From Botryllus schlosseri (taxonomy: Eukaryota): 60,000 nt of DNA. Positions 1,270-51,000 of the stretch are shown here, one piece after another (position 1 is the first letter of the stretch; every line of letters begins with the position of its first letter). A program made the translations under genes and the position numbers. A model generated the notes under the pieces. That model saw only the letters and a list, made by a program, of their open reading frames with translations, was not told the DNA's origin and ran no database searches. The stretch lies in NCBI GenBank assembly GCA_051294905.1, contig CM119373.1:994001-1054000 (forward strand), written 5' to 3'.

Positions 1270-1780
1270 GATCACACAGAAGAATATATTTTGTTTCTGT
1301 CTCCACGACTTGTAACTTTATTGCCAATCACGTACGGCCCAAAATGCAATATATTTTTCTCCCAATCAGCGAAATACTTATGAATGTCTATCGACTTCCG
1401 AATCAGCTAAATAATCATGAATGTATATCGACTTCCGAATCAGCTAATAATCACCAATGAATGCATCAATGTCTCTACGTGGTATTACACAGGTATATCT
1501 CGAACAGCCACGAGCGATTACATGCACCAAACATCGTACGATTTATTTCGTTATCTACGTTCACACGACAAATTATACGACTCACAAGGTATTATCAGGT
1601 TTCAGTTCAGGGAATTAAGTCCGTTCACAACACTCCCTATTGCTCAAATCTTAAAATGGCTTGAACAATATAGTATGTTAAAAATACCATGCCAGTAGAA
1701 ACTGCTTTCATAATGAAAGATGTCGTGGGACGCAAAATAAGGGTCTGCGGGCCGCATAGGGCTATCCTTTGTGGTTGATC

Positions 1781-1890
1781 CAGTGGTGGCCTTACGATTA
1801 GGGGGGCCCTAGGCGAAACTTCCGGGCCCCCCCCCTTATCTACATTATCGCAACTTCTGGGGGGCTACGCCCCCCAGACCCCCCTTACTA
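1781..1890 (+). mobile_element. Probable hAT-like terminus (partner end not found)
   Basis: CAGTGGTGGCC start followed by GGGGCCC and GGGGGCTACGCCCCCCAGACCCCCC motifs, common in hAT MITE ends. Confidence 0.4.
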
Positions 1891-2439
1891 ACGCTGAACG
1901 AAGCTTTTATTGTTGTACACCTCGTATGCACTGTTCCGGTAGTACATTGTCTGTACATCATGATAAAACTGTAACCATATTAAATAATTATAATGCCATG
2001 CAAAAGTACTACTTGTCATATTTCAAAACAAGTGACTCAAGTGAACTATAGTGCGTGTCGAGACCCACCTATTTAGAAGAATTATGGGATGTAGCATGAC
2101 ATAATAGTATACCAAGGCAACTGCACGCCAAATAGACCATATCAAAATAAATCCAGAAAGCTGTCGGCTGACATTAGTAATAAGCCAGCACACCAAGAAG
2201 ATTTTGTTGTATGATTAGGCATAGAGCAAAATGTGCGGCAACGTGGTACAACACCAGTAACACCACAGGAACATATCAGCACTGGTATAACCTGTGAAGA
2301 GCTAGTTCCACGATCAGTAAGAATATAGCTTTCAATACAACATCCATTGTGCACTCGAAGAATTTTCGGGTGCCACTTTTCAAGAGCACACCAAAGGGAT
2401 TTAAACAGATTTAAAAGCAAAACCAAAAAGGCAAAGTAT

Positions 2440-2600
2440 GATGCAACAATTAAAATTACAAACCATGACATTCACATTGTAACAATGGCAACAACAACAA
2501 ACTTTGAAGTATACGGACATACGGTACTATAGTAGCAGCGCAATTTGTAAATAAACTGTTACACACACGAAACAACACTCACTAATGAGAAATTTGTAAG
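2440..2600 (+). repeat. Fragment of the Harbinger-type MITE family also at 51340-51744 and 59468-60000
   Basis: Shares GAAGTATACGGACATACGGTACTATAGTAGCA and flanking sequence with 59620-59740. Confidence 0.75.
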
Positions 2601-3984
2601 ATATGGAGAAAATCTTTTTGTCTGTAAGAACTTGCCTGGTTGGATTAAACCTAAAAAGCCACAAATAGCATAGACAAAAGACCACTACAATCAAATACCA
2701 TATACGTATTTGAAAGCACTGTTACATCATTCAAGTCATAAGGCATTATGGTTGTTGGGAAAACAGCATCATCCTCAATTTGTGCAGAAAATTCCTGAGC
2801 CGACATTGATTGTTAAAATATTTGTGTAGCAGTTCAAAATTTGCATTGTCATTTCTTTCCGAATCTGAACCACTTCCTTTTCTGAGATTCTGACTTACAT
2901 TTAGCATGTACTCGCGGCATTGTAGCAGATACTTGACTAGAGTATGGTAATTAGGAAATACTGATGCAACAAATTACAACATAACTTTTAAATGAGTGAC
3001 CAAACTCATCGTAGCTAATGAAGTGTACTGTTGTCAACTGACGAGTGCGCCTTACTTAATATGCTGTTTAGAGTTTACCGGGTCATATTTATATTGAACT
3101 GGTAGCCCATTTGAAGAATGTAATGGTCAAAATTGTCTTATGCAACACCTGATCTTAGGGCAAATCTTGGTTGCAGTCAAATCCGTGGAAAGTTGCATTT
3201 ATTTTTCACTAAAGTTACACTAAAAAGGTATATTTATGGGTAAGTTCCTTGAAATTATTAAGGTATGAGATACTCGAATCGATGCGTATCCAAGGCACTG
3301 TCGCAAAACTCAGTGTTAGCGCCTTCGACAAAATCAATTGCCTGAAAAAATTGACCCAGTGGTAATATAATTTACGGCGGTCTAGCCTGAATGTGCGTCA
3401 AATCTGAAATGACCTCAAATTCAAACCACAGTGAAATAATCAAGCGATCTATTTACATATAGTACCAAATATTTCCAGTAAAAAGTGAGTTGCATGAAAA
3501 ATCGAAAAGCTGCAAAAATTGCTTGAAAAATGAAGAAAAGTTACAATTTAAGATTCCTGCAAACAGCTTAAAACACCATACTACATAACCTTCGAGTATT
3601 TAGGAAGCTGCCAGACAAGAAATGAACAAATCTTGACAACCCTGAGAATGGATTTTCATTCAAAAAAGGCCTAATTCACAACAAATATGTTGAGTCATGA
3701 GAATGGCTCAGTAAACAACAATATATATGCTATAATAGCCTACATGCTTTCATTGGCTTTTCAAATGACTATTTCCTTTGATATTTTGGATATTCAGGCT
3801 CAGTGTGGACCGGCTTCATTAGAAATTAACATACCATATGAAAGCTGGCATCAAGAGCTAGCAAGTAGAATCTCACACAAACATATACTGGAAAATTTTG
3901 ATGCACTGAAATATACACTGCTGCCACTAGGAAGTATATATTCAATAATAATTCATTACATGTTATAATATGACCTCACTGACA

Positions 3985-5045
3985 TAAAATAGAAGTAAGC
4001 TCTTTTAACAAGCACAGAAATTCAATTATCGAATACCGTTTATAGTACCATATTCTACATCGGTAGGCCTGCATGTGTTTTCACGGTTATTCGCAAAATG
4101 ATTACGAAAATTCGCATAAATGTGGGAGGGCGGGCCCTCATGAATTCTAAGTAAGCTCTTTTAGCGGGTGCAGAAATTTAATGATAGACTGTTTACGGTA
4201 CCATATTCGACATCGGTAAATATATTTTCACGGTTATTCGCAAAATGATAACGAAAATTCGCATAAATGTAGGGGGGCCTCATAAAATCAAAGCAAGCTA
4301 TTTAGCTGATGCAGAAATGTAATGATCGACTGCTGTTTACAGTACCAGATGCTACATGGGTACATATATTTTCACGGTTATTCGTAAAATGATAACCAAA
4401 AATCGCATAAATGAAGAAGGAAGGCCCTCATAAAATCAAAGTAAGCCATTTTAGCGGGTGCAGAAATTTAATAATTGACTACTGTTTACGGTATTATATT
4501 CTACAGGGGTACCTGTATTTTCACAGTTATTTGCAAAATGATAACATTCGCGTAAATGTAGGAGGGGGGCCCTTTAGCTACTGTCAAAATGGATAGAGAT
4601 CATAAAATAAAAGTGAGCTCTTGCAACTAGTGCAGAAATTTAATGATCAACTACTGCTTACGGTACTATATTTTACATATGTAGGCAGTAGGCCTACATG
4701 TATTTTCACAGCTATTCGCTAAATGATAACTAAAATTTGCATAAATGTAGGAGGGGGGCCCCCCTATAAAATCAAAGTAAGCTCTTTTAGCGGGTTGACT
4801 ACTGTTTACGGTATTATATTCTACATGGGTACATGTATTTTCGCAGTTATCTGCAAGATAATAACATTCGCGTAAATGTAGGAGGGGGGCCCTTTAACTA
4901 ATGGCAAAATGGATAGAGATTATAAGATTGAAGTGAGCTCTCGCACCAAGTGCAGGAATTTAATGATCGACAATTGCTTACGGTACCATATTCTACATTG
5001 GTGCATGGATTTTTGTGGTTATTCGTAAAATGATAACTAAAAAAT
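3985..5045. repeat. Diverged tandem array, about 7 units of 140-170 bp
   Basis: Recurring AAGTAAGCTC...GCAGAAATTTAATGAT...TTACGGTACCATATTCTACAT...TTTTCACGGTTATTCGCAAAATGATAAC...AAATGTAGGAGGGGGCC, with units starting near 3993, 4149, 4290, 4438, 4610, 4774 and 4931. Confidence 0.85.
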
Positions 5046-5649
5046 GTGGATTGATGTTTGACCCCTCTTTACGGTACAATACCAATATTCTTTATGGATA
5101 CAAGGATTCCGCGGTTATTCGGAGAATGGTAATACTTGAAAAAAAGCGCGTAAACCGGAGAAATATATAGTTGAAAAAAGCGCGTAAACTGAGGAGGGGC
5201 CCCTCGAAAGCGCGTAAATCAACCAAAGTATATGAGGATGTTGTGGAGTCTTTTCTTGTCCTGTAGTAGAAGTTGAATTGGTTATGTGTATCAAGTTCGA
5301 AGTGATTGAGAAAATCAAAAACCTTATATAAAACTGCATGGTGTATATTGCACAAGAAAGAGTCGACTCTGTATATAGGAACATATATTAACAAGAAAGA
5401 GTAACAATAAAAACGTAAATAGTAATAACTAATGTCTAAATGTGAAGAAAACCAGATGTATGGTAATAGTAACGTCTATATAGCTCGAGGTTCTAAATTC
5501 CCTGCTATACAAAGTTGGTTATTAACCTAGGCATGGTATAAGGAAATAATTATATATTTAAAAAAAGAGATACGGTATCTAGAAATATCAACGTAAGACC
5601 TTAGTAGCTTTCACACTCTATTTAACGTCCACTTGCGAATGAATATAAC

Positions 5650-5655
5650 TTTATT
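5650..5655 (-). promoter_or_regulatory. Putative polyadenylation signal of the PLE
   Basis: AATAAA on the minus strand 4 nt downstream of the hammerhead. Confidence 0.55.
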
Positions 5656-5659
5656 AGTT

Positions 5660-5696
5660 ACACGAGCTTTCGGAGCGCTGCTCCTTCATCAGGTGT
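5660..5696 (-). ncRNA. Minimal type I hammerhead ribozyme
   Basis: Minus strand reads ACAC-CTGATGA-A-GGAGC-AGC-GCTCC-GAAA-GC-TC-GTGT: intact CUGAUGA/GAAA core, stem II GGAGC/GCTCC, stem I ACAC/GTGT, UC cleavage site. Confidence 0.85.
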
Positions 5697-7068
5697 CAAA
5701 GTGAAAGTAACGCAAAAAGAGCAACGCAAAAATATTTTCAATTTGAACATATGCATATTATGACATCATAGGGAATGAGAAATTCTAGATACTGAAGTCG
5801 CGTACTCTATGACGTCATAGACACAAATATCAAGTTTTGATTTGAAATGCAAATAGTGAGTTGTGTGCCTAAAATCGGATTGGATAAGGTGTTTATATGC
5901 TAATTTGAAAAGAACAAAAAGTGCTAAGTCAAGCATTCATGGTGTAGTGAGACATACATCCTCTATCTATATTCAGCCCTTGTCGGAAAGTATCAAATTT
6001 GTCGATATATTTTTGTTCTGTAGCCTTGCGGAGAGTAGCGTCTTCCATGTTCCCGACCAATATATTGATAGTCATGTCGCTCTCCGAGTGCCCAGCGGAA
6101 GAAAAATGATCACCGACAGGCTTCGATTTGTTACCTTTCGAGATATCATGTCGGTGACCATTTACTCTCTTGTGGAGAGGTTGACTGGTTTCTCCTACGT
6201 TACGTAGGCTACGTACCATGCATTCGTACATCCTTTTCGACAGCGAATCAAATATACGACATTACTTGATTTACAAGTAAAATGGCCTTTGATGTTGTGC
6301 CGGGCGGGTCTTTTTGTAATCACGGTGCTGTGATTGAGAATAGCACACGTCTTGCATGATGGCTGTCCGCAATTTTCCACGCCATTTTCTCGTCTTGACC
6401 GAGGTAGCCTACTATTTACCAAAATGTTACGCAAGTTGCGTGGTTGCCGGATGGCTAAAATAGGTCTTCTCGGGAATACTTCATTGCATTTCGGATCGTT
6501 GATTAGTATTCGCTGATGTTTTCGTAAAATCTTACGGATCTTTTCTGCTCCCGGGAAATATGTAGTGACCAGCGGCACTCTGCGATCTTGTGTTTCCTCA
6601 TTGTGATTTCGCCTGCAATCAAGGAGCTTCTCTCGTGGTACATTGAGGGCCCTTTTTATTTGATTCCTTATCAGCTGTTGATCGTAGCCAGATTTGATTA
6701 GTTCGTGTTTCAAAACTTCCAAATGTTCATTTTTGTCCTCTTTCTTCGAGCAAATTTTATGAATTCGAAGGGCTTGCTGTAGACTATTCCTTTTTTACAG
6801 TGTACTGGATGGAAACTGTGGTAGTTTAAAATCTTACCAGAGTCCGTTGGTTTACGGTAGAGTGACGTGAAAATGCGACCTTCCTAGATGTTGACAAGCG
6901 TGTCGAGGAATGAAACTGCAGTCATCGAGCTCTCCATGGTCAGACGAATGTTAGGGTGAAAGTCGTTTATTGAATCATGAAACTTTTTCAGTGACTGTTC
7001 TCCATGGGTCCATATCATGAAAATGTCGTCGATGTATCTCGTATAAAATATTGGCCGCAATGTTTGTG

Positions 7069-7645
7069 TATAGATAACTAACCTACGGATAGATAGCCAA
7101 CAGCCGTCGTCACGCTTGCTTGCTCGGAGGAAAATACTGCTCAGCAATCTGAACTCAACGTAATTGCCAATCCCATAGCTGACGACCCGAGCGCTCAAAT
7201 TGAACAAAGTTGATCTTATTTGAACGCTACTGTCGCACTGATTCCGAAAATATACATTCAAATCCGATCGGGGCAATGGAACCGCCTCGAAATACACCTC
7301 AAAGTCTGAAAATTGGCATTGTTCTGAACAATCGAGGACACGCAAGGGTTATTGTTATGGTCATTGTGGTGCGTCCATGCGATTGTCTGGAACAATGCCG
7401 ATTTTCAGACTTTGAACGCTATTTCGGGCTGGTTCTTTTGCCTTGATGAAAGTTTAATGTATATTTTCGGAATCAGTGCGACAGTAGCTTTCTAATAATA
7501 TCAACTTTGTTAAATTTGAGCGCTCGGGTCGTCAGCTATGGGATTGGCAATTACGTTGAGTTCAGGTTGCCGAGCAGTATTTTCCTCCGAGCAAGCAAGC
7601 GTGACGACGGCTGTTGGCTATCTATCCGTAGGTTAGTTATCTATA
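7069..7645. mobile_element. Near-palindromic foldback MITE with 7-bp TSD (P-superfamily-like)
   Basis: Long inverted arms starting TATAGATAACTAACCTACGGATAGATAGCC. TSD GTTTGTG at 7062-7068 and 7646-7652. Removal restores the RT frame FMETQTLRPIFYTRYIDD. Confidence 0.9.
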
Positions 7646-10571
7646 GTTTGTGTCTCCATGAAATCTTCCTCAAAATGATGCATGAAAAGATTTGCGTATT
7701 GCGGAGCAAATTTCGTGCCCATTGCCGTTCCTTGAAGCTGTAGAAAGATCTCTTCGTTGAATTCGAACGTGTTGTGAGTTAACGTGAAGCCGATAAGTTC
7801 CATGATGCTTTTCTTTAAAGGATGTCCAATTTCTGCAAGAGATCTCTCCACAGCCTCCATGCCATCCTTATGAGGAATACTTGTATACAGGGATGATACG
7901 TCCATGGTGACTAATATCGTTCCTGATACTAAGTGATTGACATTCATGAGTTTGTTCAAAAAGTCCGTGGTGTCACGACAAAAACTTGGTGTGCTTTTCA
8001 CCAACGGTTTAAGGTGTTTTTCCACGTATCCAGATATGTCTTCCGTTATAGTTTTGTTGCATGACACGATGGGGCGTCCAGGAATATTCTCTTTGTGCAA
8101 CTTCGGTTGAAGATAGAAGCGGCCAAGAGAGGGATCAGACGGGATATTGATCTTTGATTTCTCGTCTTCTTCCATATCCAAGTATTTTATAATTTTCTTT
8201 AATCGTTTCGTGTGTTCTTTCGTTGGGTCACAATATAGTTTCTGATACGACACGGAGTCGTTCAACTGTCTGTAGCCTTCTTCTAAATAGTCTTTCAGGT
8301 CCATGACGACTACTTTTCCTCCTTTATCAGCAGGCTTGATTACGATGCTCTCTTCCTGTTTGAGTTCTGTGATTGCCTTTTTCTGCTCCTTCGTAAGATT
8401 TTCGTTGTAGTTTCTGTTGAGGTGTTTCGACTTACTAATGAATGTAGCGTTAATTTGGTTGTGGAAACTTTCTAGATATTTGTCCAAATTGTTGTTTTCG
8501 CTGTGAGGTGGCCTCCATCTTATGTTATTCTTGGGCTTCTTGTTAATAATTTGTTCAGTTATCTCGTTTCCATTCTGAGAAGCTTCAATTTCCGGATTGA
8601 CATCGTAAAAATGGTACTTGTTCCTCATTCTTCTGTCGAATTCATCGGCGTCTCCAGCTAACTCGTAAGGATCTAGTTTTTGAGTAAGGCAGAATTTCAA
8701 ATTAAGACTGAGAACATCGATTTGAGACTGCGTCAAGGTTTTGCTAGACAGGTTAGCAACGGCTATATCCGATTTATTACTTTTAGCTGTGGCGCCCGGT
8801 GGCAGTGAAATTTCGGATTTTTCCCTTTCCATTACCAATTGCGTGATTTTTTTCTCTTTTTGAAGTATCATACCTTTGACTTCGTTTGTCGAAATTTGTC
8901 AAGTAATCAAGTAATACGGTATGTAGCACTAGTGGTTAAATGGTATATGATGTGAAACGTATTTGAAAAAAAAATCTTCAAAATGGTATATTATATACAG
9001 TTCAATTTTATTTCCACGGAGTGATAAATTTCTTCTTGACTTTCTTGTTCCTCATTGGTTGTTGAATATTGTTTTAATTTCCTCCTAGAGCTGTAACCGA
9101 TTTGGAAGGGGAACGGATAGGAGGGTTGGGTAATGCGCCGAATATGTTTGCGTCGTCTTCGAAATCGATGGATGGTGTTTTGGAGGTAGTGGGGTTCCGA
9201 ATTGGTTCGATGGTAGCGGGTGAGTTCGGTGGTAATTATGCCGGTGTAAGTGTGGGAGGGGTGGTTGGAGTTGAAAGGGATGCAGGATTAGAGGGAGGCG
9301 GGTTTGAAATGAGTATTGTAGCCGATCAATCCCTTTTTTAGGGTTCTTGTATCAAATCGGAGGGTGAGGTCGAGTAAATGGTTGCGGATGGGGTTGCATT
9401 CGAAGGTAATTTTGAAATGTTTAGGGTAAATTTGGATGATGTATTGGTTAACGTAGGGCAGGTGGGATGGGTTGGTGCAGGTAATAATTATTCCGTCGAC
9501 TAGATAACGACGGAACAAGCGGCCAGGTCTCCAAATCTCCACAACCTGGCCGCTTGTTCCGTCGTTATCAAATTTTCTTCAAAAATGGCGAGGGTGAGGT
9601 CACCGGATTGGGCGAAGTAATAACTGCCCATTGCTAATCCATATTTATGAATGTACAGGTTATCAGCAGAGGAGAAGTAGCAAAGGTCTTGGCAAAAGAG
9701 GAAAAGATCGATAGCAAAGCTGGAGATTGGATGTGGGATAGTGATGGTGCTTTTAAGCTGATTAAAGGCATACATGACGTCCTCATTTCTTATGTTTGTG
9801 TATAAGGATTCGAAATCAAAGGTAACAATTTGGCTGTTGAACGGCGCGCTGGTAATCGTCGTGTTATCGAGAGCGGCTGCGATGTCATAGCTGTTCTTTG
9901 TTAGTGTGGGTGTAATGGCATGGCTCTCGAGGTGTTCGATGTAACCGTTCTTCCACTCTGTCAGGATATTGCCTAAAAGTTTGCCGGGTTCTACAGTAAT
10001 CCAAGAGTGAGCCGAAATTATGGGTCTGCCTTTCAGTTTTGTTCGTCTTTATGATTGAATGGTCCTAGTTCCAATTTATGGGGTTTGGGTGAAAGGTTGA
10101 AAAGAGGGATGAGACAGTTTTCTTTAGTTCTAAGTTCTAAAAACGCAACGTTCTGCATGTGTCTCAGTAATAGTTTTCTTATCACTGAGGGCCTTATCTA
10201 ACATTGTTTCTAAGCAAAGTTGAATAGGGGTGTAAATGTCTAACGGATTCATTAATGTACCAGTTGGTCGAATTAAAGCAGGATCCTAAATATTAATAAC
10301 TAAGGCCCGTATTTAAGAACACCACTCGGTGCTCAAACATCGCTTGAGTGCCTCAAACAATAATAAATGGTATTCAATAACGTAACTCAAATCTCAAGTT
10401 TAAGGTCGGTTTGAGGCACGCATTCTTGAGTATGAGTTTCTTGTGAGAACTCACGGTATTCTAGGAGACTCAGAATCTGCATACTTGAGGTTATTTCGCT
10501 GAGTTTGAGCACTTTTTTCAAGTTTGATCATAGGGAAGCTTGAACTAGACTTGTTAGCTCTCTGACTGATA

Positions 10572-11398
10572 GTGGACATTGCAAGTGAATGTAGTCGTTC
10601 TCGTAGGAGAACCCAAAGAGAGAAGGAGTTGCTGCATTCTCTCGTAGACAACTTTATGGGGGTTGTCGAATCGAAAAAAGTGATGCCAAATCAATCCAAC
10701 ATAAGAATGAAGCTTGGGAGAAGATCAGTAAAGAATACAATGCTATGCCTGATGTGCAGAAGTTGACAGTCATACAACTAAAAAAACTATGGCAGAACAT
10801 GAAGACCAGAGCAAAATCTGATATCTCTCGGGAGCGCACGGCAACGAAAGCTACCGGGGGAGGTCCACCTCCACCCGAAGTTGATGAGATTTCTAAAAAA
10901 ATCTATAGCGCAATTCCGTCACAGTTTGACCCTTTGCCGAATGACTTTGATGGTGATTTTAGCGGTTCTACCCAAAATGTCCAAGGGGTCATAATCCATG
11001 TGTCGGATGCAGAGTGTATGCCTTGTATGGATAGTACAGACATGGACAGCAGTTCTGTATCCAACTCTGGTGAGGTTCCTATCATTACAACCGCAGGGAG
11101 TAATGTTATCCTCAATAGTACAATGATATCTCAACAAGAAAATGCTAGCTTATCGGGATCTACTCAGCATACCAAGAAAAAATTGAAAGCACAAAACGAG
11201 GTCAATGATTTTATTTTGAGGAGTTTATCCGAGCAGCATGAGGCGAAAATGAAACAAATAGACCTGCAGATAGAACAACAAAAACAGGAACAAGAAGTTA
11301 AAATGGAGAAATACAAAGCTGAAATGAAGTTTCTTAAGGAGGAACACAAAGCAAGAATGGAAATTTTCAAAAGGAAAGCAGAAAACCTAAATAACTGA
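10572..11398 (+). pseudogene. Harbinger Myb/SANT-like DNA-binding protein (frameshifted near 10680)
   Basis: EKELLHSLV...VESK, then AWEKI...YNA...QLKKLWQNMKTRAK...ATGGGPPP and a C-terminal coiled coil. Confidence 0.8.
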
Positions 11399-16152: not shown

Positions 16153-17777
16153 TATATATATATATATCGTCTTTCAATTAAATAAAAGGGCAAAAGAAAA
16201 CAGGAAACAAACGAACATCAAGATAATGAGTTTTCAGCCCTTATTAAGCGCCTCCATCGTGGGCGGTCGTGGGCGTCTTCGAGCGATAGCCCGCGTTGCG
16301 CTAGCTCGGTCTCTATTGTTGAGCGCCATGTGGTTCTATTCCAGCCACCTCTGCGCCATGGCTCCGTCGGAATGTGGTTGATGATGGCGGCGGCTGGTTG
16401 ATCGTCTTGATGCCGCACTAGATGACCGATTAAGCGTAAGCGTCGTTCAGCAGCCAGCAAACGGCATGGGACTGTTTTTGTGAGTTTGCGCAGAGCATTG
16501 GTGGATATGTGCTCCGGGTGGTGGATGCCGAGTGCGTAGCGGAGGAGTGCATCGTAGTTGGCGTTGAGTGTCTTAGCCAGCTTTTCTGTCAGCGTGAGTG
16601 CTTCTATTCCGTAGAGAAGAACCTGCTCGACAGTGGCACGGAAGATGCGGGTCTTGAGCTGGGTTGAGGCACTTGAGTGGAAGAGGCTATGTAGCCGTCT
16701 TGCCGCGCCCCAGGCCTTTGCTCGCCTCGCCTTGAGCGCTTTTCCAGAGTCAGCGACGTCAATACCGAGGTAAACAAAACTCGTTACATACTTGAGATCG
16801 ATATCTCCCAGTTGAATTGGTGTCGCGTTCGCCGGTAGAGCTGGTATGGCCAGAACCTCAGTCTTCTTAGCGTTGATCTGGAGGCCAACAAGAGCGGCGG
16901 CGGCCTCTAGCTGGTTTATGAGACACTGTGCCGATGCGGTGTTCGGGGCAAGCAGGGCTAGGTCGTCTGCGTATGCAAGAACACCTACGTGGATTGCCTC
17001 GCGAGTCGTACGCGTGCGCGTTCCTTGCCGTGGCCGCCGTTCGAAGAAGTCGTGGCATTCATGTCCCCAAGCAGCATGGTTATGTCGCGCTGCGGGTAGG
17101 TTGATAGAATGCCTTCTAGTTGGTCGTAGAAGGCGAGCGTATCAGCTGGGAAGGCAGTGGTGTTCGGAGATGTTGGTCCATACGCACACACTAGGTGCAG
17201 TTTGCGGCGACGGAGTTGAATGCTGGCTGTGATAATCCGGCTGTTTATAACGCAAATCTTTGCCTCGGCGTGGAAACGCTGGGACAAGATTAGACCGACG
17301 CCTCCAACTCCGCCTTGGTTGGCAGGTGATTGGATCATGATGATGCCTGCGCCTAGGTCTTTTTCACGGAATGGTTCGGTGAAGTGCTGGCGATGTTCTT
17401 GGATTGCCAACGCATCAAGTTTGAGGTCTGTCACAAGTGCGGCAGCTTCTTCCTGGCGCCATACAGAGTTCAAAGTTCTCGTGTTCAGAGTTCCAAGTTT
17501 AACTTCTGCATTTAGGCTAATCCTCAGGGATCTTGGTTGAGGCTTCGGGTCCCCGGCGCCACCCGGCAGATCCCAGTCTTTCTGTTGATATTGTCCCACT
17601 CGGCGAGTACGCAGTAACTTAAGGTAGTAAAGTCTTCGTCGCACTTTGCGACTTGGTCTACTCTGTTTACTGCCTATACTGCGCAGCACGTCCGAGCTGT
17701 ACGTAATCATTACAAAGCAATCAGCTAGCGGAGCGAGAAATACACGTCTGCACTCGGCGACTGACTAAAGCGACTTC
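16153..17777 (-). mobile_element. Internally deleted copy of the RTE-like LINE at 48089-51276
   Basis: Near-identical to both ends of the full copy, with about 1.57 kb missing at a junction near 17050. (TA)n tail. TSD GCCCTGGTTA at 16143-16152 and 17778-17787. Confidence 0.95.
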
Positions 17778-25190: not shown

Positions 25191-25257
25191 AAGTATCTTT
25201 TACAATATTGTCGCTGTATGGCCTCGAGATATCATGGATTAGTTATGAAATCAAACT

Positions 25258-25630
25258 GTCCACCAGAGTTTTGCGGTTGTGTAGGAGAGTTTTGCCGTAG
25301 TCTACCACAGAGTTTTGCTGTTGTCCACCAAAGTTTTGCGGTTGTCTACCAAAGTTTTGCGGTTGTAAAGGAGAGTTTTGCGGTAGTCTACCAGAGTTTT
25401 GCTGTTATCCACCAAAGTTTTGCGGTTGTATAGGAGAGTATAGTGGTAGTCTACCAGAGTTTGTTGTCCACCAAAGTTTTGCGGTTGTATAGGAGAGTTT
25501 TGCGGTAGTCTACCAGAGTTTTGCTGTTGTCCACCAAAGTTTTGCGGTGTATAGGAGAGTTTTGCGGTAGTCTACAAGAGTTTTGCGGTTGTCCACCAAC
25601 GTTTTGCGGTTGTATAGGAGAGTTTTCTAA
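25258..25630. repeat. About 21-bp minisatellite (AGAGTTTTGCGGTTGTCTACC-like)
   Basis: About 17 diverged units, bracketed by a roughly 65-bp direct repeat at about 25195 and 25717. Confidence 0.9.
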
Positions 25631-26152
25631 CAGAGTCACCCTCAAAACCCTGCTAGTTACCACCAAAACCATGCTAGCAACCCGCAAAAACCAGGCAGAT
25701 TCAGTTATATGCGTGCATCTTTTACAATACTGTCGCTGTATGGCCTCAAGATATCATGGATTTGTTTTGAAATTCAACTATGCACCAAATCTGATGATCT
25801 GTACGCGAAACCCACAAAAGCAAGGCATATTCAGGGAATGTGCGCATCTTCTACAATATTGTCACAGTATGGCATTTGAAGACATAGATTAGGCCTATGA
25901 TCTAATTCAGCATTAGGCAACACTCTCAGCAATTTGAGATGTCTAATGGGACATTCATGTAATTTCTTCACTCAAGTCTTCCAGTTAGAAGGGAGATAGC
26001 CAAAACACCTTGAGAAAAAGGGGAATAGTTGGGAATAGTTGAGTTTTTCAAGTGTGTCCAAAATTGTTGTTACATCACAAATAATGTACATCATGACCAT
26101 GTGGTAGCTCACTTCTTGAAATTTTAAGTACCAGTGGAAATTCACTAGCAAC

Positions 26153-30970: not shown

Positions 30971-33255
30971 TGTGAAAACCCGAGGTTTCCAGAATGTTCG
31001 GTATTTTCCGTTTGAAATATTGTTGCGCGTGGTATGGCTGGAGACCGCGTGTTGAGTTGAGTGGAGTGGGGAGTTGGCTGAGAGCGTGGCTGAAGATGGA
31101 TGCGAGTGAGTGTGTCTCTGTGTTTGGTAGCGTGAAGTATTAGTAGTTTGGGGCAGCAGCGTGAAGTAGTGGTGGTATTAGGCAGTTAGGGCGTGAAGTA
31201 GGTAGTTGGTCTTGTGTTGGCGGGCTTGAGTTGGACGTACCGGTCGGAATCTCTGCGCGGATAGGCTGGGGCACGGCCTAGTCACTGACGGTGCTGCGCG
31301 AGCACCTAGGGAGTGATGTTGCCCCGTTGGTAGTTCGTACTCGCTTGTAGATAGCAAGACTGCTGCTGGGCTAGGTTTAGGCTGATGGGTATGTGTGCTT
31401 GTGCGTGAGGCTTGTGTGGAGTTTAGTTACAGTTTCCTGTGTAGTGTGTATCGTATAGGAGTTATGGATCGTCTGGGTTCCGTTATGTGTCCGTGAGCAT
31501 CGTTATTATGAGTTTCTTGTGTCGTATTAATATAATCTTATACCGCATAGACTTGTGGTGTTGTCGGTTGTACCGTGATTGCAAGTGTCATTTGAGCAGG
31601 CGGCAGTCGCAGGGAGACGAGGTCCCGAGCCCAGTAACACACCTGCGATCCCCGTTATTGCTACCGGTATACGCCGTAACGGGGTCGCTACAAATTTTGG
31701 CGAGCACGCCAGGACCTTGTTTATCTTTGTGATTGCCGCTGCTGTGCATGCGTATAATATGTCGACTATCGAGTGCCGGTATATCGTATATTCGTATTTG
31801 AGAGATGAAGCTTTTTTGGGCGGAACGTTTGGAATAGCTATTTGTTATTGTGTCTGCGGTGGCCGAGTGTTCTGTGGATTCTTTATGACGTGAACAATGG
31901 GAACGAGCGTTCGTACTGGTTTGGCTACTACGAAGTACGAAGCGGAGGCCAATTATAGTGAGTGGATTGGCTGTGAAGAAATTGTAACCAGTGCCTGCAG
32001 TGCATGTGCGTGCACTTGAACTGAAGATGTTACAGAGCCTGGGGTTATGTGCTGGCGGAGTGCAGTAAAGAGGCGGATGGCTGAAGATAACTGGGCGAGT
32101 GACGTTGATTGCGGATTGCGGAAGCTTCAATAAATGTGTATGCTGGATTGCTGGTCAAGCGGAGCATCGGGTCGTAACTGATAGCCCTGTCGTGGGCCGT
32201 GTCGAAGCGCAGGGTTGGCTCAGGCACTGATGACGGTGACAAGCTCGTCAGTGTGTGTCGGCGGCGGAAAATCGAATGTCCCTTTTCGGAACCATCATTG
32301 CTTGGTGGTGGATTCGCATTCAACTGAGGGCAGCTTGGACGGTGGCCATGGCAAGCTGTGGAATGCAGTCGGAACTAGTGCGGCGGACTTCGATGTCGGG
32401 GAGCAGTCTCTGAGGCCAAGCGTACTCATGTTATTGTAAGCTGTTTGTGGACTTGAGCGTATTGCTTTGGAATTGGGCTATTGGTGATTTCGATTTTGTT
32501 TGAGAAAATCTCAATCAAAATAGGCCGGGGTAGTGTGAAAACCCGAGGTTTCCAGAATGTTCGGTATTTTCCGTTTGAAATATTGTTGCGCGTGGTATGG
32601 CTGGAGACCGCGTGTTGAGTTGAGTGGAGTGGGGAGTTGGCTGAGAGCGTGGCTGAAGATGGATGCGAGTGAGTGTGTCTCTGTGTTTGGTAGCGTGAAG
32701 TATTAGTAGTTTGGGGCAGCAGCGTGAAGTAGTGGTGGTATTAGGCAGTTAGGGCGTGAAGTAGGTAGTTGGTCTTGTATTGGCGGGCTTGAGTTGGACG
32801 TACCGGTCGGAATCTCTGCGCGGATAGGCTGGGGCACGGCCTAGTCACTGACGGTGCTGCGCGAGCACCTAGGGAGTGATGTTGCCCCGTTGGTAGTTCG
32901 TACTCGCTTGTAGATAGCAAGACTGCTGCTGGGCTAGGTTTAGGCTGATGGGTATGTGTGCTTGTGCGTGAGGCTTGTGTGGAGTTTAGTTACAGTTTCC
33001 TGTGTAGTGTGTATCGTATAGGAGTTATGGATCGTCTGGGTTCCGTTATGTGTCCGTGAGCATCGTTATTATGAGTTTCTTGTGTCGTATTAATATAATC
33101 TTATACCGCATAGACTTGTGGTGTTGTCGGTTGTGCCGTGATAGTAAGTGTCATTTGAGCAGGCGGCAGTTGCAAAGAGACGAGGTCCCGAGCCCAGTAA
33201 CACACCCGCGATTCCCGTTATTGCTACCGGTATACGCCGTAACGGGGTCGCTACA
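30971..33255 (+). mobile_element. Non-autonomous LTR retroelement (TRIM/LARD-like, Gypsy-type TSD)
   Basis: 722-bp TG...CA LTRs at 30971-31692 and 32534-33255, TSD AATT, PBS, purine-rich tract before the 3' LTR, and an 841-bp interior without gag/pol motifs. Confidence 0.92.
31698..31714 (+). promoter_or_regulatory. Primer-binding site, tRNA-Arg(ACG)-like
   Basis: TGGCGAGCACGCCAGGA just after the 5' LTR, close to the complement of the tRNA-Arg(ACG) 3' end (TGGCGAGCCAGCCAGGA). Confidence 0.65.
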
Positions 33256-37489: not shown

Positions 37490-39800
37490 CTATTGATGGG
37501 TAACTTTAACCGTTCTTAATGAATTTGTTTGACAGATATCATTTAGCCATAACTTACAATATTTAAACTCGATATTCTTTAACATCTTGTCCACGATTTC
37601 AGCGTTTTTTTCATCCGGTTTCTTTAGCCTTATTTTTATTCTTTGGGCTATTGAAGCTATGATCCATTTGGAGTCAACCGTTTTCTTTTGATGCTTTATT
37701 TTGTTTCTACCAGCCCACACCGCCTGGTTATAGATGGTGATGGTTTTAATCAGGGCCGTTTCCTGGTCTTGTGTTGTTCTCTCATTTATATTCATACAAA
37801 GTGTTAGTTCTACCTCTGGGGTTCGTATCTGAACTCCCGTTGATGATTCCCAGGAGCTCAGTATCGCTTTTAGGGCCGGTTTCGTCTCCTTGCATTGGGC
37901 AAAGAGGTGCGCATGAGTTTCCAGTCTCGTTTTGCTGATCTCACAGTCTCTTGTTGTCGCTCCCAGTCTTGGCTCTAGCCTCTCGTTGATTTGCAGAATC
38001 CCCTGTGCAATATTCCAGTTAATTTCTTTTTGCTGTGGTGTGAGGGTGTTGTGGTTTATGTTTTTCCAGTTTTTTTCCTTCTAAATCTGATATTTCTCGT
38101 TTGTGTTGTCTTTCCAGGGTTTCCTTGTATATATCTTTCCGTCTCTTTTTGTCAAGATCCTCAGCTGCAATGCCTATTTCTCTCATTGTGTCTTTTTTCC
38201 TGTCATTTAAGGGCTGCAGTGTGTGCGCGGCCTGTCCTTTGAGATGGATCTTTTTTGTATTTTTTTTAGTGCGAAGGCTAGTTGGTAGTCTTTCCTTTTC
38301 TGCCTTCCTTTTCTCCTCATCCCTGAAGGTATTTGATTGCCGGTTTTATGTACGCTAGATCTGTTACCCTTGGGATGTCTACAAGGTCTATTCCTCCAAG
38401 GGCCGTGCTCAGTGTTAGGGTTTTGTAAGTTATTCTTCCTTCTACACCGAGGAGGAAGAGCTTGATCTTTCTTCCTAGTCTCTCTGCAATGTCCTTGGGG
38501 AACCTTGAGTTCGCGGCCTGGTATACGTAAAGTGGAAGGACGTTGGTTCTTATTATGGTCACTATTTCGTCTCTAGGCAGGTTCATTTTCCCTACTTCAT
38601 CCATGAGTTTTTTTTTTGCAGGGCTTCTTCCCATTGTTTTCAAGTAGCATATTCCTCGCTGTCGCTGGTATTTTTTCTTCCCTCGCTAAATCTTATCCCC
38701 ATGGTTTTCTTTTTGTTTATTTCCATTCCACTTGCTTTTACGAAATTGTTTATCATTTCCAAGGCCTTTTTGCAGTCCTCCTCTTTTGATAGGGTTACTG
38801 ATATATCATCAGCATATCAGCATATGCTGGTGCTATTATTGGTTCCTTTTGCCCTTTCAGTTTGTGCCCCGTGATATTTTTGTTTAAGCACGGTAGGAGT
38901 GACTCAGTTGTTATCGTGAATATCTGCATATATATCGGGTCTTCTTGCTTTATCCCGGATCTTATCGGTATGTACTAGCCCGTTCTGCCATCTATCGAGC
39001 TTTTGGCCTCGCCTTGTCGGTAAGTTTTTTCCAGGTAGCCTCGGAATTTTTTTCCGAGTCCTGCCGTCTTGAGGGCTGCCTGCATGAATTTATGATCATT
39101 CATATCATAAGCTTTCTTAAAGTCAATTGAGACAATTGCTTCCTTCCTGCTTTCTCTCGTGTCTGCTGTCACTTCCCTCATAATCAGGTTGATGTTTTTG
39201 GGTGGGTTCACATATTGCTGTGGGTGCGTTATGTGCTGTAGGTTGTTCTTTAGTCTGTTTTATAGTCTGAATTGAGCAGTGTAATTGGCCTATAATTTTT
39301 GATATCCCTTTCATCTCCATCACATTAATCACACCCCGCGCTAGGTCTGTTGGTATCTTCTGTGCAGCGTATAATTCGTTTAGCGTTCTTGCCAGGTCTT
39401 TTATGATGATTTTTAGGTTGATTGCATAAAATTCCGCACTTATCCCATCCTCGCCTGGTGATTTCTTTTTTCTCTGCTGGTTCATAGCCGGCCTTACCTC
39501 ATAGGGTTGTATTTCCGCATCTATGGCGTCCTTTTGTTTATCTGTGAGCTTCCCTTGGTGGTATTGCAGGAAGGTTTCATGTCAGTGTTCTTTTCTTTTT
39601 ATAAGTCTTTGTAGAAGACCTCTACTATTTCCCTAATTTTTTTTTGTCTTTTGTTGGCCTCCCTTGATGGCCTAGTATTTCTTTTGAGGCATCCTATCTT
39701 CTCTTCCTTATTTTTTTACATAGGAGGTATGGTTTTTTGTCAAGTAGGGTTTCCTCCTCTATTTTTCGTTCGCGAAAGCTGGCACGCTGCAGCTTCTTTG
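37490..39800 (-). mobile_element. Decayed L1/Tx1-like LINE ORF2
   Basis: KSPGEDGISAEFY, SIDFKKAYD, YADDIS, LGGIDLVD and a C-terminal ETHAHLF..C; many stops and frameshifts. Confidence 0.8.
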
Positions 39801-40139
39801 ATCAGTTTTTTTATTAATAAAACACAAGTTGGGTGGCCCTTAAAAGGGCCGTATAGCGATAAGTAAAAATTGATTACAGTTACAAAGAAGAAAATGAAAG
39901 TTTCCACGCTACACATAGTCATATTGATAATCACATGGATGAGATAATGGCCTTATGAGGAATAATAAACACATATAAGCGAATTAAAATGTAAGGGAAT
40001 GCGCGACAAGTAATCGTCATTGCATATTTTTGGCTGGCTCACAGTTAAATTCACTACTATGTACGACTACGGTATAAAATTGAGAAATAATTTTCATTTA
40101 TCAAGGATTTGTTGATTATTATTCTGACATATTGTTTTC

Positions 40140-42758
40140 TCAGGAAAAATGTTTAAATTCCGTGTTACTTACGACAAATCTTCAGTTGCGGACCACATTA
40201 TGTTCCCTGATGCTGGGCTCAACTTCAGCATACAATATTTTACCAGTGAATTCAATGACTGGCTGGATGTAGATGATATGGAAATATTGCCCGACTCTTG
40301 CAGGCTTAATATCATCAAAAATGTGGATTTGGAGATCACAAATCAGTCCATCGACTGTGACACATCTTTGGACAAAAGCACGGATGGTACTGTTAGGAAA
40401 GCAAGTGTGACAGATGAACCAGACTGGAGTTTCAAAAGTGAGTTCACCGAGATACCTTATTAAGTAGAGCTGATATTTCAATGATATTTATTTGAGTTGG
40501 GCAAACTAGTTCCGGTGAATTTCAAAGCATGCTAAATCTAGCAAGATATCTCACACACGTTCACCTTGAATTTGAAACCACATTTGGATGCTCTTTAATG
40601 ATTGTATCCGCTTCTGAAAACTGAGGGATGCGTCTTTACCATGAACACATACGAACAATGGCCCATTCTCCCATATTAGATGCGGTTTTTAAGAGCTGCT
40701 TGCAATACTCCTGCAATCGTAATTTCAAAATATTGCCTGCATGACCAATATATACGATTTCAAAGTGCACCCCATATTACTGATCTCTGTCAGCAGTATG
40801 TATATGATACTTATATGATTATTGAATTTACTTTAATTTCTAGATCCTTGATGATATGAAGCATCTTGTTAGGTGTGACATCGTACAGACGCTTCAAGTT
40901 TACAAGGAAAGCGGCAAACTTGAAAAAATTAAACGCCTTGTAATATCGAAATGGACAAAGTTACCGATGACATAAAATTGTTACTTCGTGAGTGAGAATT
41001 ATCCTCCTTTCGTTTAACTCTGGACTAAATATAGAATTCGTTGGTTTGCAGGCAAAGATGATGTATCGTGGCTAATCGGGATGGTACCGTTGCTCAAAGG
41101 CAATGATCTAGTTGTACTTCAGGTAACAAAAGAAGTTGGCCTGCCTCCTAAATTTTCATTCAATAGCAAGCTAAATGATATACGTCTATTTAATGAAAAG
41201 CCCAATGTAACTACTAGTATATATAACTACTAGCCCACTGCAAAATGACATTTGCAATCACTTTTCGAAATTAGGGATTGCGATGCATGGGTCACAGATA
41301 GGGCTGGGCAAACCCGAGTACCTGAGTGATTCGATTCTGAATCACGTAAAATGAGTCGAGTATTCCAGTATCATTATGACGTCACAACAGAATTTAATAT
41401 GTCAGGTTGAAAAATGCACCTTTTATCCCACCACAAAGAATATAATGCCTGTTATTCGTCACATTAAAGATACTTTGGTATTTTTTCGACCATACCGATT
41501 TCATTGCTCTTGTTGAAATTGTTGTTGGATGATGATGACTTTGAAAATGTGTTATTTCCAGTCACGGTCGTAGCTTTGTACTATGTCTCGTAGGCTGCGA
41601 CACGGCTAATCAAGGTTTCAAGGTTTCCCTCAATGGAAAATGGTATTAAGACTATAATTCTCGATGGTAAATTAACTTTTAGTGATGAGGAGCGCATAAT
41701 TTCAGTACTAGAAAAACTCATCTTTTACTACTCGACTCGAATCATTGTGCCCAGCCCTAGTCACAGACAGAAGTACCAAATTGCATTGGTTTCTAGTTTA
41801 TAGCATGATGTATCATTTAATGCAGAGATTATTTCCTTTGGTAGGAATTGATTCTAATATACATTACTTTACAGGAAAAGGCAACTACGCCATATCCGAC
41901 GTTACTCTGCTACAGTGGAGTGAAGGTGTCATTTGATGGAATTGTCATCCCCTGCAGTGACTTGCTGCAGGCTGTTGCTGTATTGGTGGCTATTTATTGG
42001 GTTTTCAATATTTCATTTTCCCCGCTCAACACAATTGCTTCATGCAATTTTTGTGCGGGCATGTGCTTAAATTTCCCACCATATAGGTACCCTTGAGACC
42101 GATAAAGCTTCTTAATGTCGCAGTAGTGATTTCAAAGTTAGTATTTTAAGCCTAGTTTTGCCTAATAAACTGAAAACTATCAAGTAGAAGTAGACTTTGA
42201 TCTCTATTCACCAGTATGGCAGTATAAGTCGCATTTTCAAATGAGTGAAAAAATATATGCCTAGTTTAGCTTAACAAACCGTAAACTAACAAGTGGCAGT
42301 AGTGTTTCAAGTAAGTGAGAACTAACAAGTAGCAGTAGTGTTTCAAGTAAGTGAAAAGTATCGACCTAGCTGTGCTTGACAATCCAAGAAGTAGAAGCAG
42401 TCTAAATTCAAAACAATTGATGTAGCAATCATAATCTGATTGGGGTCCTTCATTACTACCACTTCTGTTAAGCTATATCGAGTTATTCCGTTGATTTATT
42501 TATTGCCAAATTTCAATTGTAGCTGTAATAATATATGATTGAAAACTGACCCAATTTTGTGGAATCTGTAGCATCCAGCAAAGGTGAGATAGCTAAAAAT
42601 ACACCCATATGGGCGGCGATGCTTCGGGATGTAAAGGCGTCTTAATCACCTTTAGGATGTGGGTGAGTTATGTTGAAAATCAACCCCAGGGGTGTAAAGG
42701 GTGTTTTTGCTTGTACCACCTCTGGAGGTGTGGAGGTACACCTTTTTTATTTACAGTG
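40140..42758 (+). mobile_element. EnSpm/CACTA-type element remnant (spliced accessory ORF and right terminus)
   Basis: Exon-like pieces FSIQYF..EFNDWLDVDD...LPD and LLQAVAVLVAIYWVFNISF. Terminus TTTACAGTG (revcomp CACTGTAAA) with ACACC/GGTGT subterminal repeats. Confidence 0.6.
41299..41759. mobile_element. hAT MITE (461 bp)
   Basis: TIR TAGGGCTGGGCA, exact TSD GTCACAGA at 41291-41298 and 41760-41767. Confidence 0.92.
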
Positions 42759-43399
42759 TATCCACGTGCGTTTTCGTACGTATTCGCATTACCACAAAAT
42801 ATACAGGAATAATATAATGTTCGTTTCTATTATTACCAAAGTTATACCTCATAGCTTCATCTGCTGTTACGAATTACTAGGTCGAAGATATTGATTGCAC
42901 TGAAAGGAAGGACCCTGGCTAACCGAATCAGGCAGTTCCGTGAATTCGTACCAGCACTCTCCGGGCAGCAGGTCATTTCAAAACCGAACTTGCACTGCGG
43001 CGATCAAGAATACTGTTAAAATAACGATCGGTGATTTGGGCCGCCTTGAGGATGGGATGGGGAAAAGTCGGACCCGTACATCGCGGCTACTGCTTGCTAC
43101 ACCAATTTGTCGTCACGAGACGGTATCAATACGATGTACAAAATCAGTACCACACAGGTAGTAATCGAACAACATTTCAAAGCGCTGAAAATTTGAATTG
43201 CAAGGCTAGATAAAGAAATTTACGTTTCAATGTCAAAACCAAAACAATCAAGACGGGACCGTTTTTCCCTGCAAGGAGTCGAGATGCACAGCTAACAGAA
43301 GGTATAGTGAATCGTGTACCTTCGCTAGTAGAAGGGTCTGTTGTGACTACTGTCATTGCTGATACACGAGAGCCCTAAAATCAAATGAAGTTGGAAAAC

Positions 43400-47819: not shown

Positions 47820-48088
47820 ATAGCTCCCAAATATGGTCCAGAAAAATGCCCGGCATTTTCACACCTTGGCTAGGTAACGTGTCTAACCGTTTTGAAAAGC
47901 TTATTAAATCGGCTGTTCACCGTTGTTATTTCAGCGTTAACACGCATGTGGTGTACACGACGAAATCCTTGTTGCCCAACTCTCGAAAATATGAACTTCC
48001 TGCCTTCAATGCAAGCAATGTTGTCTACCAATACAAGTGCCACTGTGATAAGATTGTTTGAGCGTATTAGGCAGCATATCCCTTAACT
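47820..48088 (+). pseudogene. Penelope-like element fragment (thumb / GIY-YIG start)
   Basis: GPEK..PWLGNVS...SNVVYQYKCHC...RLFERIRQHIP. Confidence 0.7.
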
Positions 48089-51000
48089 ATATATATCGTC
48101 TTTCAATTAAATAAAAGGGCAAAAGAAAACAGGAAACAAACGAACATCAAGATAATGAGTTTTCAGCCCTTATTAAGCGCCTCCATCGTGGGCGGTCGTG
48201 GGCGTCTTCGAGCGATAGCCCGCGTTGCGCTAGCTCGGTCTCTATTGTTGAGCGCCATGTGGTTCTATTCCAGCCACCTCTGCGCCATGGCTCCGTCGGA
48301 ATGTGGTTGATGATGGCGGCGGCTGGTTGATCGTCTTGATGCCGCACTAGATGACCGATTAAGCGTAAGCGTCGTTCAGCAGCCAGCAAACGGCATGGGA
48401 CTGTTTTTGTGAGTTTGCGCAGAGCATTGGTGGATATGTGCTCCGGGTGGTGGATGCCGAGTGCGTAGCGGAGGAGTGCATCGTAGTTGGCGTTGAGTGT
48501 CTTAGCCAGCTTTTCTGTCAGCGTGAGTGCTTCTATTCCGTAGAGAAGAACCTGCTCGACAGTGGCACGGAAGATGCGGGTCTTGAGCTGGGTTGAGGCA
48601 CTTGAGTGGAAGAGGCTATGTAGCCGTCTTGCCGCGCCCCAGGCCTTTGCTCGCCTCGCCTTGAGCGCTTTTCCAGAGTCAGCGACGTCAATACCGAGGT
48701 ATACAAAACTCGTTACATACTTGAGATCGATATCTCCCAGTTGAATTGGTGTCGCGTTCGCCGGTAGAGCTGGTATGGCCAGAACCTCAGTCTTCTTAGC
48801 GTTGATCTGGAGGCCAACAAGAGCGGCGGCGGCCTCTAGCTGGTTTATGAGACACTGTGCCGATGCGGTGTTCGGGGCAAGCAGGGCTAGGTCGTCTGCG
48901 TATGCAAGAACACCTACGTGGATTGCCTCGCGAGTCGTACGCGTGCGCGTTCCTTGCCGTGGCCGCCATTCGAAGAAGTTCGTAGTATCCGGGAAGGCCG
49001 TTCGCAGCACGAAGTCAAGGATGACCACAAACAAGAATGGTGCCAGGGTGTCACCTTGAAGCACACCAGCCGAAGTGTTGAAATCTCCGCTTGGGCCGTC
49101 ATCTGTTCGGACTCGCGCTCGTGTGTCAGTGTAGAGGGCCATAATGGCGTACGTTATCACCTCAGGAATTCCATAGAATCTGAGGATCTCCGCCATGGCT
49201 GGGCGCGAGACCGAGTCGAAGGCTTTCGCGAAATCAACGAAAACGGCCACAACATTCTTTTTGTGTGAGCGGCAGGTGTCAATGATTGTGCGCAGTGCCA
49301 GGATGTGCTCTGTTGTACCGCGGGATGGTCGAAATCCATTCTGAGCATTCAGGAGCTTGGTAGAGAGTTGCTCACGTATGCGAAGGAGCAGTACTCGGTC
49401 GAACAGCTTGGCAGCGGTCTGCATCAGGGAGATGCCTCTGTAGTTCGCTGGGTCACTCGCAGCGCCTTTCTTGTAGATAGGGACGATTTCGCTCTCGAGC
49501 CACTCGGGGGGCACCGGGCCGCCTTCGAGGACGCCATTCATGATGTCGAGGAGCACAGGTGCAACGCCCGAGGTGTAAGCAGCCGTTGGGATGCCGTCCG
49601 TGCCGGTGGCCTTGAATTGTGGTACTCCACTCATGGCTGTCTTGAGCTCACCTAGCGTGATCAGGGTTGTATTGATCGCTAGAGGATTTGCTGCTAGTGA
49701 AGGCGGTGCAACGAGCACATCGATGTCCGGTGCAGGTGTAGATAACAGGGTCTCGAAGTGTGCTGCGAGGTCTTCCGTACAGGCCTTCACGCGGGTCCTC
49801 TTGAAGCCAACTAATTCACCGATAGCTTTCCAGGCTGCTCTTGGTCGGCCTGCTTCCAACTCCTTTTCCACGGAAAGGGCAATGGCTTCGACTCGTTCCT
49901 TGCGAGCTGCGTCGTAAACGTTTGTTAAATATAGAGCTGCCTCGTTCGCATCGCTATGTGCGTCCAGTGTTCCAGAGGTGTACGCAGCACGTCTGAGAGT
50001 CTTGAGGTTGCGGCGCGCACTGAGCACTGTCGGGTCGGATTCCCAGGCTAATCTTGGCCGTGGCTTGCTACGGGCCTCACCGAGCGTTTCACGGGCGGCA
50101 TCCTTGACTGCTGCTACAAGTGGCGCAAAGTCGGTCGGCATAGCATTTTGGATCTCGAGGGCGCGGAGTGTGTGCGTGGTAAAGACATTCATCGTATTTG
50201 CGTCCTTAAGATCGAACCAATTTGGTAGGGGCTCTTTCGGTGTGCGCTTCGGGACGAACGGGAGGCGTTCACGAAGCGTGGCCAGCACCATGCGATGGTC
50301 ACTCCTGATCGTTAGCATGCGCACCGTTCGGCAGTTCGTGAAATGGCGCCGTGCGGGAGCATTGCAGCAGATATAGTCCAGCCGTGTGTTGCGTTGGCGC
50401 ATACCGTCAAATGTCGTCATACGCTTCGGCTTCATAGAGAAGTTGGCATTGAGAGGAATGAGGTCGCAGCGGTCGAGTAGATTGGTAAAATGCTCCGAGT
50501 TGCTGTTCTCATGGCCAACTGGGAAGCGAACTCGCTGCGAGCGCTCGGCCAACGTGGCATTCATGTCCCCAAGCAGCATGGTTATGTCGCGCTGCGGGTA
50601 GGTTGATAGAATGCCTTCTAGTTGGTCGTAGAAGGCGAGCGTATCAGCTGGGAAGGCAGTGGTGTTCGGAGATGTTGGTCCATACGCACACACTAGGTGC
50701 AGTTTGCGGCGACGGAGTTGAATGCTGGCTGTGATAATCCGGCTGTTTATAACGCAAATCTTTGCCTCGGCGTGGAAACGCTGGGACAAGATTAGACCGA
50801 CGCCTCCAACTCCGCCTTGGTTGGCAGGTGATTGGATCATGATGATGCCTGCGCCTAGGTCTTTTTCACGGAATGGTTCGGTGAAGTGCTGGCGATGTTC
50901 TTGGATTGCCAACGCATCAAGTTTGAGGTCTGTCACAAGTGCGGCAGCTTCTTCCTGGCGCCATACAGAGTTCAAAGTTCTCGTGTTCAGAGTTCCAAGT

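Follow-up and report, generated by a model that had tools for sequence, protein, structure and literature searches.

Is the 37-base motif at positions 5660 to 5696 of the window (the whole 60-kb stretch of DNA that was analysed) a hammerhead ribozyme, and is it of any use to the retroelement that carries it? An initial annotation of this DNA had placed a hammerhead here, at the 3′ end of a Penelope-like element (PLE), and had described an intact core with stems I and II, a vestigial stem III (GAAA-GC-UC) and an AATAAA directly after it. As listed in Table 1, this description of the motif held with one small correction. The motif lies on the minus strand, which that annotation had not given, and is read from 5696 to 5660, and every element of the published descriptor of minimal hammerhead ribozymes (min-HHRs) is present in it. 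The CUGAUGA box, the 4-bp helix I and the 5-bp helix II can be read directly in the sequence. The box with its following A fits the published consensus CUGANGAH, and the pair G5684-C5672 closes helix II. There is no loop III, and the AGCU within GAAA-GC-UC is self-complementary (positions 15.2-16.2 are a palindromic G-C); it would pair as helix III only between two motifs. The AATAAA hexamer is also present (5655-5650), but it begins 4 nt past helix I and not directly after the motif. By the hammerhead numbering, the cut is predicted between 5664 and 5663. In isolation (44-56 nt), the motif takes a minimum-energy structure that includes both helices, with z-scores of only −1.25 to −1.47.

Table 1. 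Coordinates of the motif, its host element and the neighbouring features in the window.
Feature	Position	Strand	Basis
Minimal type I hammerhead ribozyme motif (whole)	5660..5696	-	sole descriptor match in the window
Helix I, 5′ strand ACAC, 4 bp with 5663-5660	5693..5696	-	sequence, folding
Catalytic box CUGAUGA (C3-A9), 5692-5686, plus extra unpaired A at 5685 before G10.1	5685..5692	-	sequence
Helix II, GGAGC / loop AGC / GCUCC, 5 bp, 3-nt loop, G10.1-C11.1 closing pair	5672..5684	-	sequence, folding
GAAA (5671-5668), GC, UC (5665-5664)	5664..5671	-	sequence
Helix I, 3′ strand GUGU	5660..5663	-	sequence, folding
AAUAAA hexamer, putative poly(A) signal	5650..5655	-	only one in the 344-nt 3′ end
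Predicted 8-bp hairpin competing for the helix I 3′ strand, AAUAA in its loop	5643..5663	-	prediction only
Complement (12 nt) of the 5′ strand and loop of helix II; predicted block of the hammerhead fold	5716..5727	-	prediction only
3′ untranslated end (pseudo-LTR sequence), family boundary at 5585-5594	5585..5928	-	depth step, loose ends
Probable optional 30-40-bp tail between termini ~5626 and 5585-5594	5585..5626	-	depth and contig end; inferred
5′-truncated Penelope-like ORF: RT (DKG, YIDD), CX4CxxC linker, GIY-YIG-type endonuclease	5929..8898	-	four collinear pieces against P0001
Palindromic (MITE-like) insertion, 577 nt, splitting the RT; flanking 7-8-bp duplication	7069..7645		repeat analysis

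The min-HHR descriptor was coded from the supplement of PMC4209133: a stem I of 3-7 bp, CUGANGA(N), a stem II of 3-7 bp, a loop of 3-10 nt and (N)GAAANNUH. The motif has a stem I of 4, a box of 8 nt, a stem II of 5, a loop of 3 and GAAAGCUC, all of them within the descriptor. A search with hammerhead models, which the initial annotation had named as a check, gave a divided result. The Rfam models gave no match to the motif at the gathering score or at E values up to 10, whereas the published descriptor returned a single match in the window, which is this motif. The Rfam output in the window consisted of only four microRNA-precursor matches, on palindromes and far under the gathering score. With a helix I of 4 bp, the motif falls outside the canonical type I hammerheads as defined by the Rfam threshold or by a 6-bp helix I with a loop-loop tertiary contact. 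No second hammerhead was found within the 60-kb window by the descriptor or by looser scans. A relaxed scan that included a U3-A8 core gave one more match at 52097, which was poor and was discarded.

To which hammerheads is it related? The min-HHRs in the pseudo-LTRs (pLTRs) of metazoan PLEs were published in 2014 by Cervera and De la Pena (PMC4209133), and the annotated kinship with them is supported by a full match to their descriptor (Fig. S7) and to their >80% consensus (Fig. S3), along with the lack of a loop III. Like that consensus, the motif has a U-rich 5′ flank, an extra nucleotide before G10.1, the G10.1-C11.1 pair, a palindromic GAAAN-NUH and an AU-rich 3′ flank. Its G-C-U-C ending also occurs in the published rows of Adineta vaga (2) and Schistosoma mansoni (1), and its 3-nt loop II is the short limit of the descriptor. 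The exact motif sequence, on the other hand, is absent from the 56 rows of the published alignment. A single 3′ motif is also what the 5′-truncated PLEs of Table S1 in PMC4209133 have, and that table includes a Neptune example. The non-LTR retrozymes of animals (bioRxiv 10.64898/2026.07.22.740005) likewise carry a type I hammerhead related to that of PLE pLTRs. They are described there as non-coding tandem repeats, whereas this motif is single and attached to an ORF; no tandem array over the motif, as expected of a retrozyme, was found in the window.

The annotated location at the 3′ end of a PLE was also confirmed, since the motif lies in the 3′ untranslated end behind an RT and GIY-YIG ORF. 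It is on the same strand, about 230 nt 3′ of the stop codon of the ORF, in the repeated end of the family. The four pieces of the ORF are collinear and 44-60% identical to residues 118-881 of P0001, an intact relative of 881 amino acids. The first 117 residues of P0001 have no counterpart here, which is usual for truncated copies. RVT_1 is above the Pfam cut-off, with the motifs PADKGG and YIDD, and the linker CGQPSCKTC fits CX2-5CxxC. The endonuclease piece is 49% identical to that of P0001, and its Pfam GIY-YIG match is weak (E 0.05, under the cut-off). The placement of Cys in TCKS and IRCRKGC and of His in GDHF and AGHS is CCHH-like. One in-frame stop, two frameshifts and one insertion were found in the ORF, and with its 5′ end missing as well, this copy is dead. 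As a separate observation, the inserted palindrome has 266-nt arms that are 90% complementary, and the depth at its end is about 25,000 in run X1, which suggests an abundant family.

By the definitions in PMC8557442 the element appears to be Neptune-like, that is, of the Neptune or Nematis type, an assignment made by motifs and not by an RT tree. The C-terminal endonuclease, the CX2-5CxxC linker, the CCHH-like residues and the DKG motif are shared with the Neptune and Nematis PLEs as described by Craig et al. in 2021 (PMC8557442), and so are the 5′ truncation, the probable 30-40-bp tail and the hammerhead in the pLTR. Unlike the elements described there, the present copy is dead and has no upstream pLTR; no second copy of its 3′ end, either as an upstream pLTR or as a partial tandem, was found in the window. 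The Cys linker distinguishes it from Penelope and Poseidon, which are without it. The supplement of Craig et al. (PMC8557442) gave no match to the exact motif.

Where do the copies of this family end? Four of the 24 listed sequencing runs were mapped on 5200-7100 at 82% likeness, and the depth so obtained is not equal to copy number. In run X1, the depth rises in one step from 35 to 25,241 (mean 35 at 5520-5583 and about 25,000 at 5584-5711), and it is 1,600-8,600 over the ORF bins from 5904 to 7055. Loose contig ends at 5585, 5590 and 5594 form a cluster that was seen in three runs. There is a second step in X1, from 38,269 at 5630 to 8,340 at 5603, and one deep contig of run X6 ends at 5626. 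The family would thus have two termini, 32-41 nt apart, both beyond the predicted cut by ~40 and 70-80 nt, respectively. Their distance fits the optional 30-40-bp tail of PLEs (PMC11167929, PMC8557442).

Within 40 of the 161 substitution rows from the family copies, the core is left alone. Three of these 40 lie within the motif, at 5678 and 5679, where the helix II loop is variable in the sequencing runs, and at 5666 in the helix III spacer. Through the change at 5666 the spacer reads GU and not GC, which would still allow wobble pairing between two motifs. The same 40 of 161 rows contain no substitution in the catalytic box or in the helices, nor any compensatory pair in helix I or II.

Some other features of the reads were seen near the motif. 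In X1, the depth of 17,700 at 5666 roughly doubles to 38,000-43,000 at 5630-5637, and a low-depth X6 contig contains a head-to-head junction of two ends, 5656 and 5661, near the predicted cut. Both could reflect copies truncated near the cut site or a mere overlap of contigs at branch points. In addition, 17 RNA reads of run X23 have a variant motif (spacer GU, altered loop II) that joins an unrelated sequence inside the helix I 5′ strand at 5693, on the strand opposite to that of the other X23 cluster described below. They are probably from a truncated sister copy within a host transcript.

What would such a motif do in a living element? The explanation that I favour, at a probability of roughly 0.8, is that it is a minimal type I hammerhead sequence in a decayed PLE, which in active copies would weakly trim tandem precursor RNA with the aid of a dimer partner or of protein, while this lone copy is inactive. 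The monomer motif has no helix III of its own and thus cannot form an active core. By analogy with other elements in the literature, the two AGCU palindromes in a tandem precursor transcript of an active copy would pair with each other, and these four pairs would supply the missing helix III. The core would then cut after UC (5664/5663), and the element protein may aid the folding of the RNA, as in other elements. The ends of the family at ~5626 and 5585-5594 suggest that reverse transcription begins downstream of the motif. Since both termini lie beyond the predicted cut, the genomic copies, this one included, would come from RNA that was uncut, or cut and rejoined, at the motif. If reverse transcription starts past the motif, the ribozyme probably trims the precursor RNA and does not set the inserted 3′ end. 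The present copy, 5′-truncated and with no partner motif in the window, is likely inert. By nearest-neighbour energies the active dimer is not the preferred one: in the most stable predicted dimer (−30.5 kcal/mol) the strands of helix II are swapped, and the model with helices II and III and one helix I drawn is at −19.9. In a longer sequence context the hammerhead fold is predicted to disappear entirely, which also speaks against the favoured explanation, as do the silence of Rfam and the lack of a hammerhead in the three related loci described below.

A close parallel is PAc, the Poseidon element of Anolis carolinensis (Frangieh et al. 2024, PMC11167929). Like PAc, the present element has a pLTR hammerhead, ends tens of nucleotides past the predicted cut, and has two termini one tail length apart. 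In PAc, as reported in that paper, the hammerhead cleaves only with the help of protein, insertion in vitro proceeds without cleavage, and the cut site is not marked by ends of RNA-seq reads. The two differ in that the PAc ORF starts inside the hammerhead, while the AUG in the core here opens only 11 codons before a stop. As it stands, the motif brings a further family into a class that numbers thousands of motifs across animals and is itself of little consequence. Being dead, truncated and single, this copy is ill suited to test the in vivo role of PLE hammerheads, for which an intact tandem member of the family would be better.

Is cleavage needed at all? A less probable view, yet the one of the alternatives that deserves most attention, is that the hammerhead is genuine by descent but its cleavage is irrelevant to the element, the motif being carried as a passenger or kept as a structural or protein-binding signal. 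It is compatible with the identity of the motif in the favoured explanation. The PAc data speak for it, since catalytic mutants still insert in vitro (PMC11167929). Naiad elements thrive without canonical hammerheads, and hammerheads as parasites of PLEs are an idea floated in the same paper (PMC8557442). The min-HHR dimers were reported with low in vitro activity (PMC4209133); in the case of the Schistosoma motif given there, the monomer is inactive and the dimer and trimer have low activity. Moreover, predictions in the sequence context have the hammerhead fold blocked, with the downstream hairpin and the upstream 12-mer of Table 1 taking the strands of helices I and II. Against this view, the catalytic letters are intact while the ORF has several lesions, and the core is retained across animal phyla in the published alignment (PMC4209133).

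It is improbable that the ribozyme and the adjoining AAUAAA jointly form the 3′ end of the element RNA, either by a monomer that cuts after UC or by polyadenylation ~20 nt past the hexamer. The initial annotation had expected RNA ends after the UC. The family copies end ~40 and 70-80 nt beyond it, and there is no pile-up of read ends. The hexamer is unique in the 344-nt end, which fits a role in forming the RNA end, although it is common elsewhere (90 AATAAA per 120,000 positions of the window). An AAUAAA just 3′ of helix I or overlapping it can also be seen by eye in 9 of the 56 published rows (PMC4209133), a further point for this role, and thus the AAUAAA neighbour is not new. A cut upstream of the AAUAAA would, however, part the hexamer from the ORF.

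RNA reads bear on the same question. In the raw RNA run X23, of which ~3% was read, 95 reads were placed, only 4 of them at an identity of at least 99%, and they may derive from other loci. The reads that are probably element-sense cluster at 5584-5903, as an RNA end in this region would predict. Their strand was inferred from a 3′-end library, presumed from the read lengths, and from the read-strand convention of 3′ single-cell libraries. Their depth continues past the cut site (9 at 5666, 12 at 5630 and 7 at 5603), and no position in the X23 reads has many molecule starts or ends, both of which argue weakly against an RNA end formed here.

Could the blocked fold be a device of its own? It might be that in this subfamily the 12-mer (5727-5716) and the downstream hairpin hold the 3′ ribozyme off, so that only a transcript whose start, or splice junction, lies beyond the 12-mer would have it active. 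I regard this as slightly less probable again than the joint formation of an RNA end. The predicted duplex of the 12-mer with the 5′ strand and loop of helix II has −19.2 kcal/mol. When the 62 upstream nucleotides were shuffled 1000 times, 3 of the shuffles equalled this value, for a pattern that was spotted post hoc. The probability of helix II falls from 0.98 to ~0 when the RNA start is moved upstream of ~5724. However, shuffled upstream sequences also disrupt helix II (p ≤ 0.1) in 60 of 300 cases and give an equally stable fold in 27 of 300. The 12-mer sits in a 10-nt direct duplication (5709-5718 and 5723-5732), and sister subfamilies look by eye as if they were without most of it, one X6 contig having a loose end at 5716 and four X8 contigs at 5720. 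For splicing, there is a parallel in the Penelope of Drosophila virilis, where the end of an intron abuts helix I and the spliced and unspliced forms differ (PMC4209133). Here no splice joint was seen in the RNA reads near the motif. A splice acceptor before the motif was considered for its pyrimidine tract and rejected, as the first AG after the tract is inside the core and the reads have no joint. No blocking conformation in PLE hammerheads was found in the titles or opening lines of abstracts of the papers that a search of an open-access library listed, and no counterpart of the predicted blocking strand was found in the description of min-HHRs in PMC4209133. If such a switch were true, an inverted near-copy of helix II would have arisen within this subfamily, and in a tandem the upstream ribozyme would escape the block through splicing or through the position of its transcription start. 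The element would then carry a switch of its own for turning cleavage on and off, which would account for PLE RNA being cleaved at one of its ends but left whole at the other. Of all the features seen here, only the predicted blocking strand would add interest, if it were conserved and functional.

How often would a match to the descriptor arise by accident? The real 60-kb window has one match, versus 26 in 6000 block-shuffled windows searched on both strands (0.004 per window), and only 3 of the 6000 had a match as good as the real motif or better. A smaller first run had given no descriptor match in 1500 shuffled windows, and a looser custom scan gave 0.01 matches per shuffled window. A chance match is hardly credible, in spite of the weak folding z-score, the silence of Rfam and the 74 matches of a similar degenerate pattern in viral contigs, none near a PLE protein, because the shuffled frequency is so low, the sole real match is on the correct strand and in the correct 350-nt part of the one near-complete PLE, and the motif has consensus features beyond those that the descriptor demands.

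The 74 viral-contig matches came from a degenerate motif scan, and they were set aside since no PLE protein was near any of them. In two of them, L026 (1492-1523) and L029, which have the same sequence, helices I and II also close at the matched site, around a GAAA-GC-UC core, and no PLE protein lies near. This sequence may be a chance match or a minimal hammerhead outside PLEs. A search by protein gave related loci in none of the viral contigs, in 2 metagenome contigs and in 1 genome contig. None of these three has a hammerhead; two of them end 33 and 115 nt past the protein match, and L002 continues for ~520 nt without one. The broader alignments A1 and A3 contained no stretch conserved enough to serve as a search query. 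The locus L003 is a 1.3-kb scaffold in a bacterial symbiont assembly that encodes a PLE protein 57-60% identical to the animal-type relatives; it is probably host DNA in the symbiont assembly.

The window has several other mobile or repeated sequences. Just upstream of the element, at ~9040-10050 on the minus strand, lies a second RT remnant that has diverged far more (25-30% against PLE proteins), in the region of which there is a small near-perfect palindrome at ~9496-9576. No hammerhead was found at this remnant. A 263-aa Myb/SANT-like ORF (Pfam Myb_DNA-bind_5) is located at 10607-11398 on the plus strand; it is presumably of the kind carried by Harbinger-type DNA transposons. Downstream of the element, a degenerate tandem array with a unit of ~149 nt occupies 3970-5060. 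The GC-rich stretches 16159-17350 and 48088-50852, 32-33 kb apart, share exact direct repeats of at least 300 nt, and another pair of exact direct repeats, 1563 nt apart, is found at 30971-32833. These repeats are probably young mobile elements. A minisatellite array with a 21-nt unit lies at 25234-25631.
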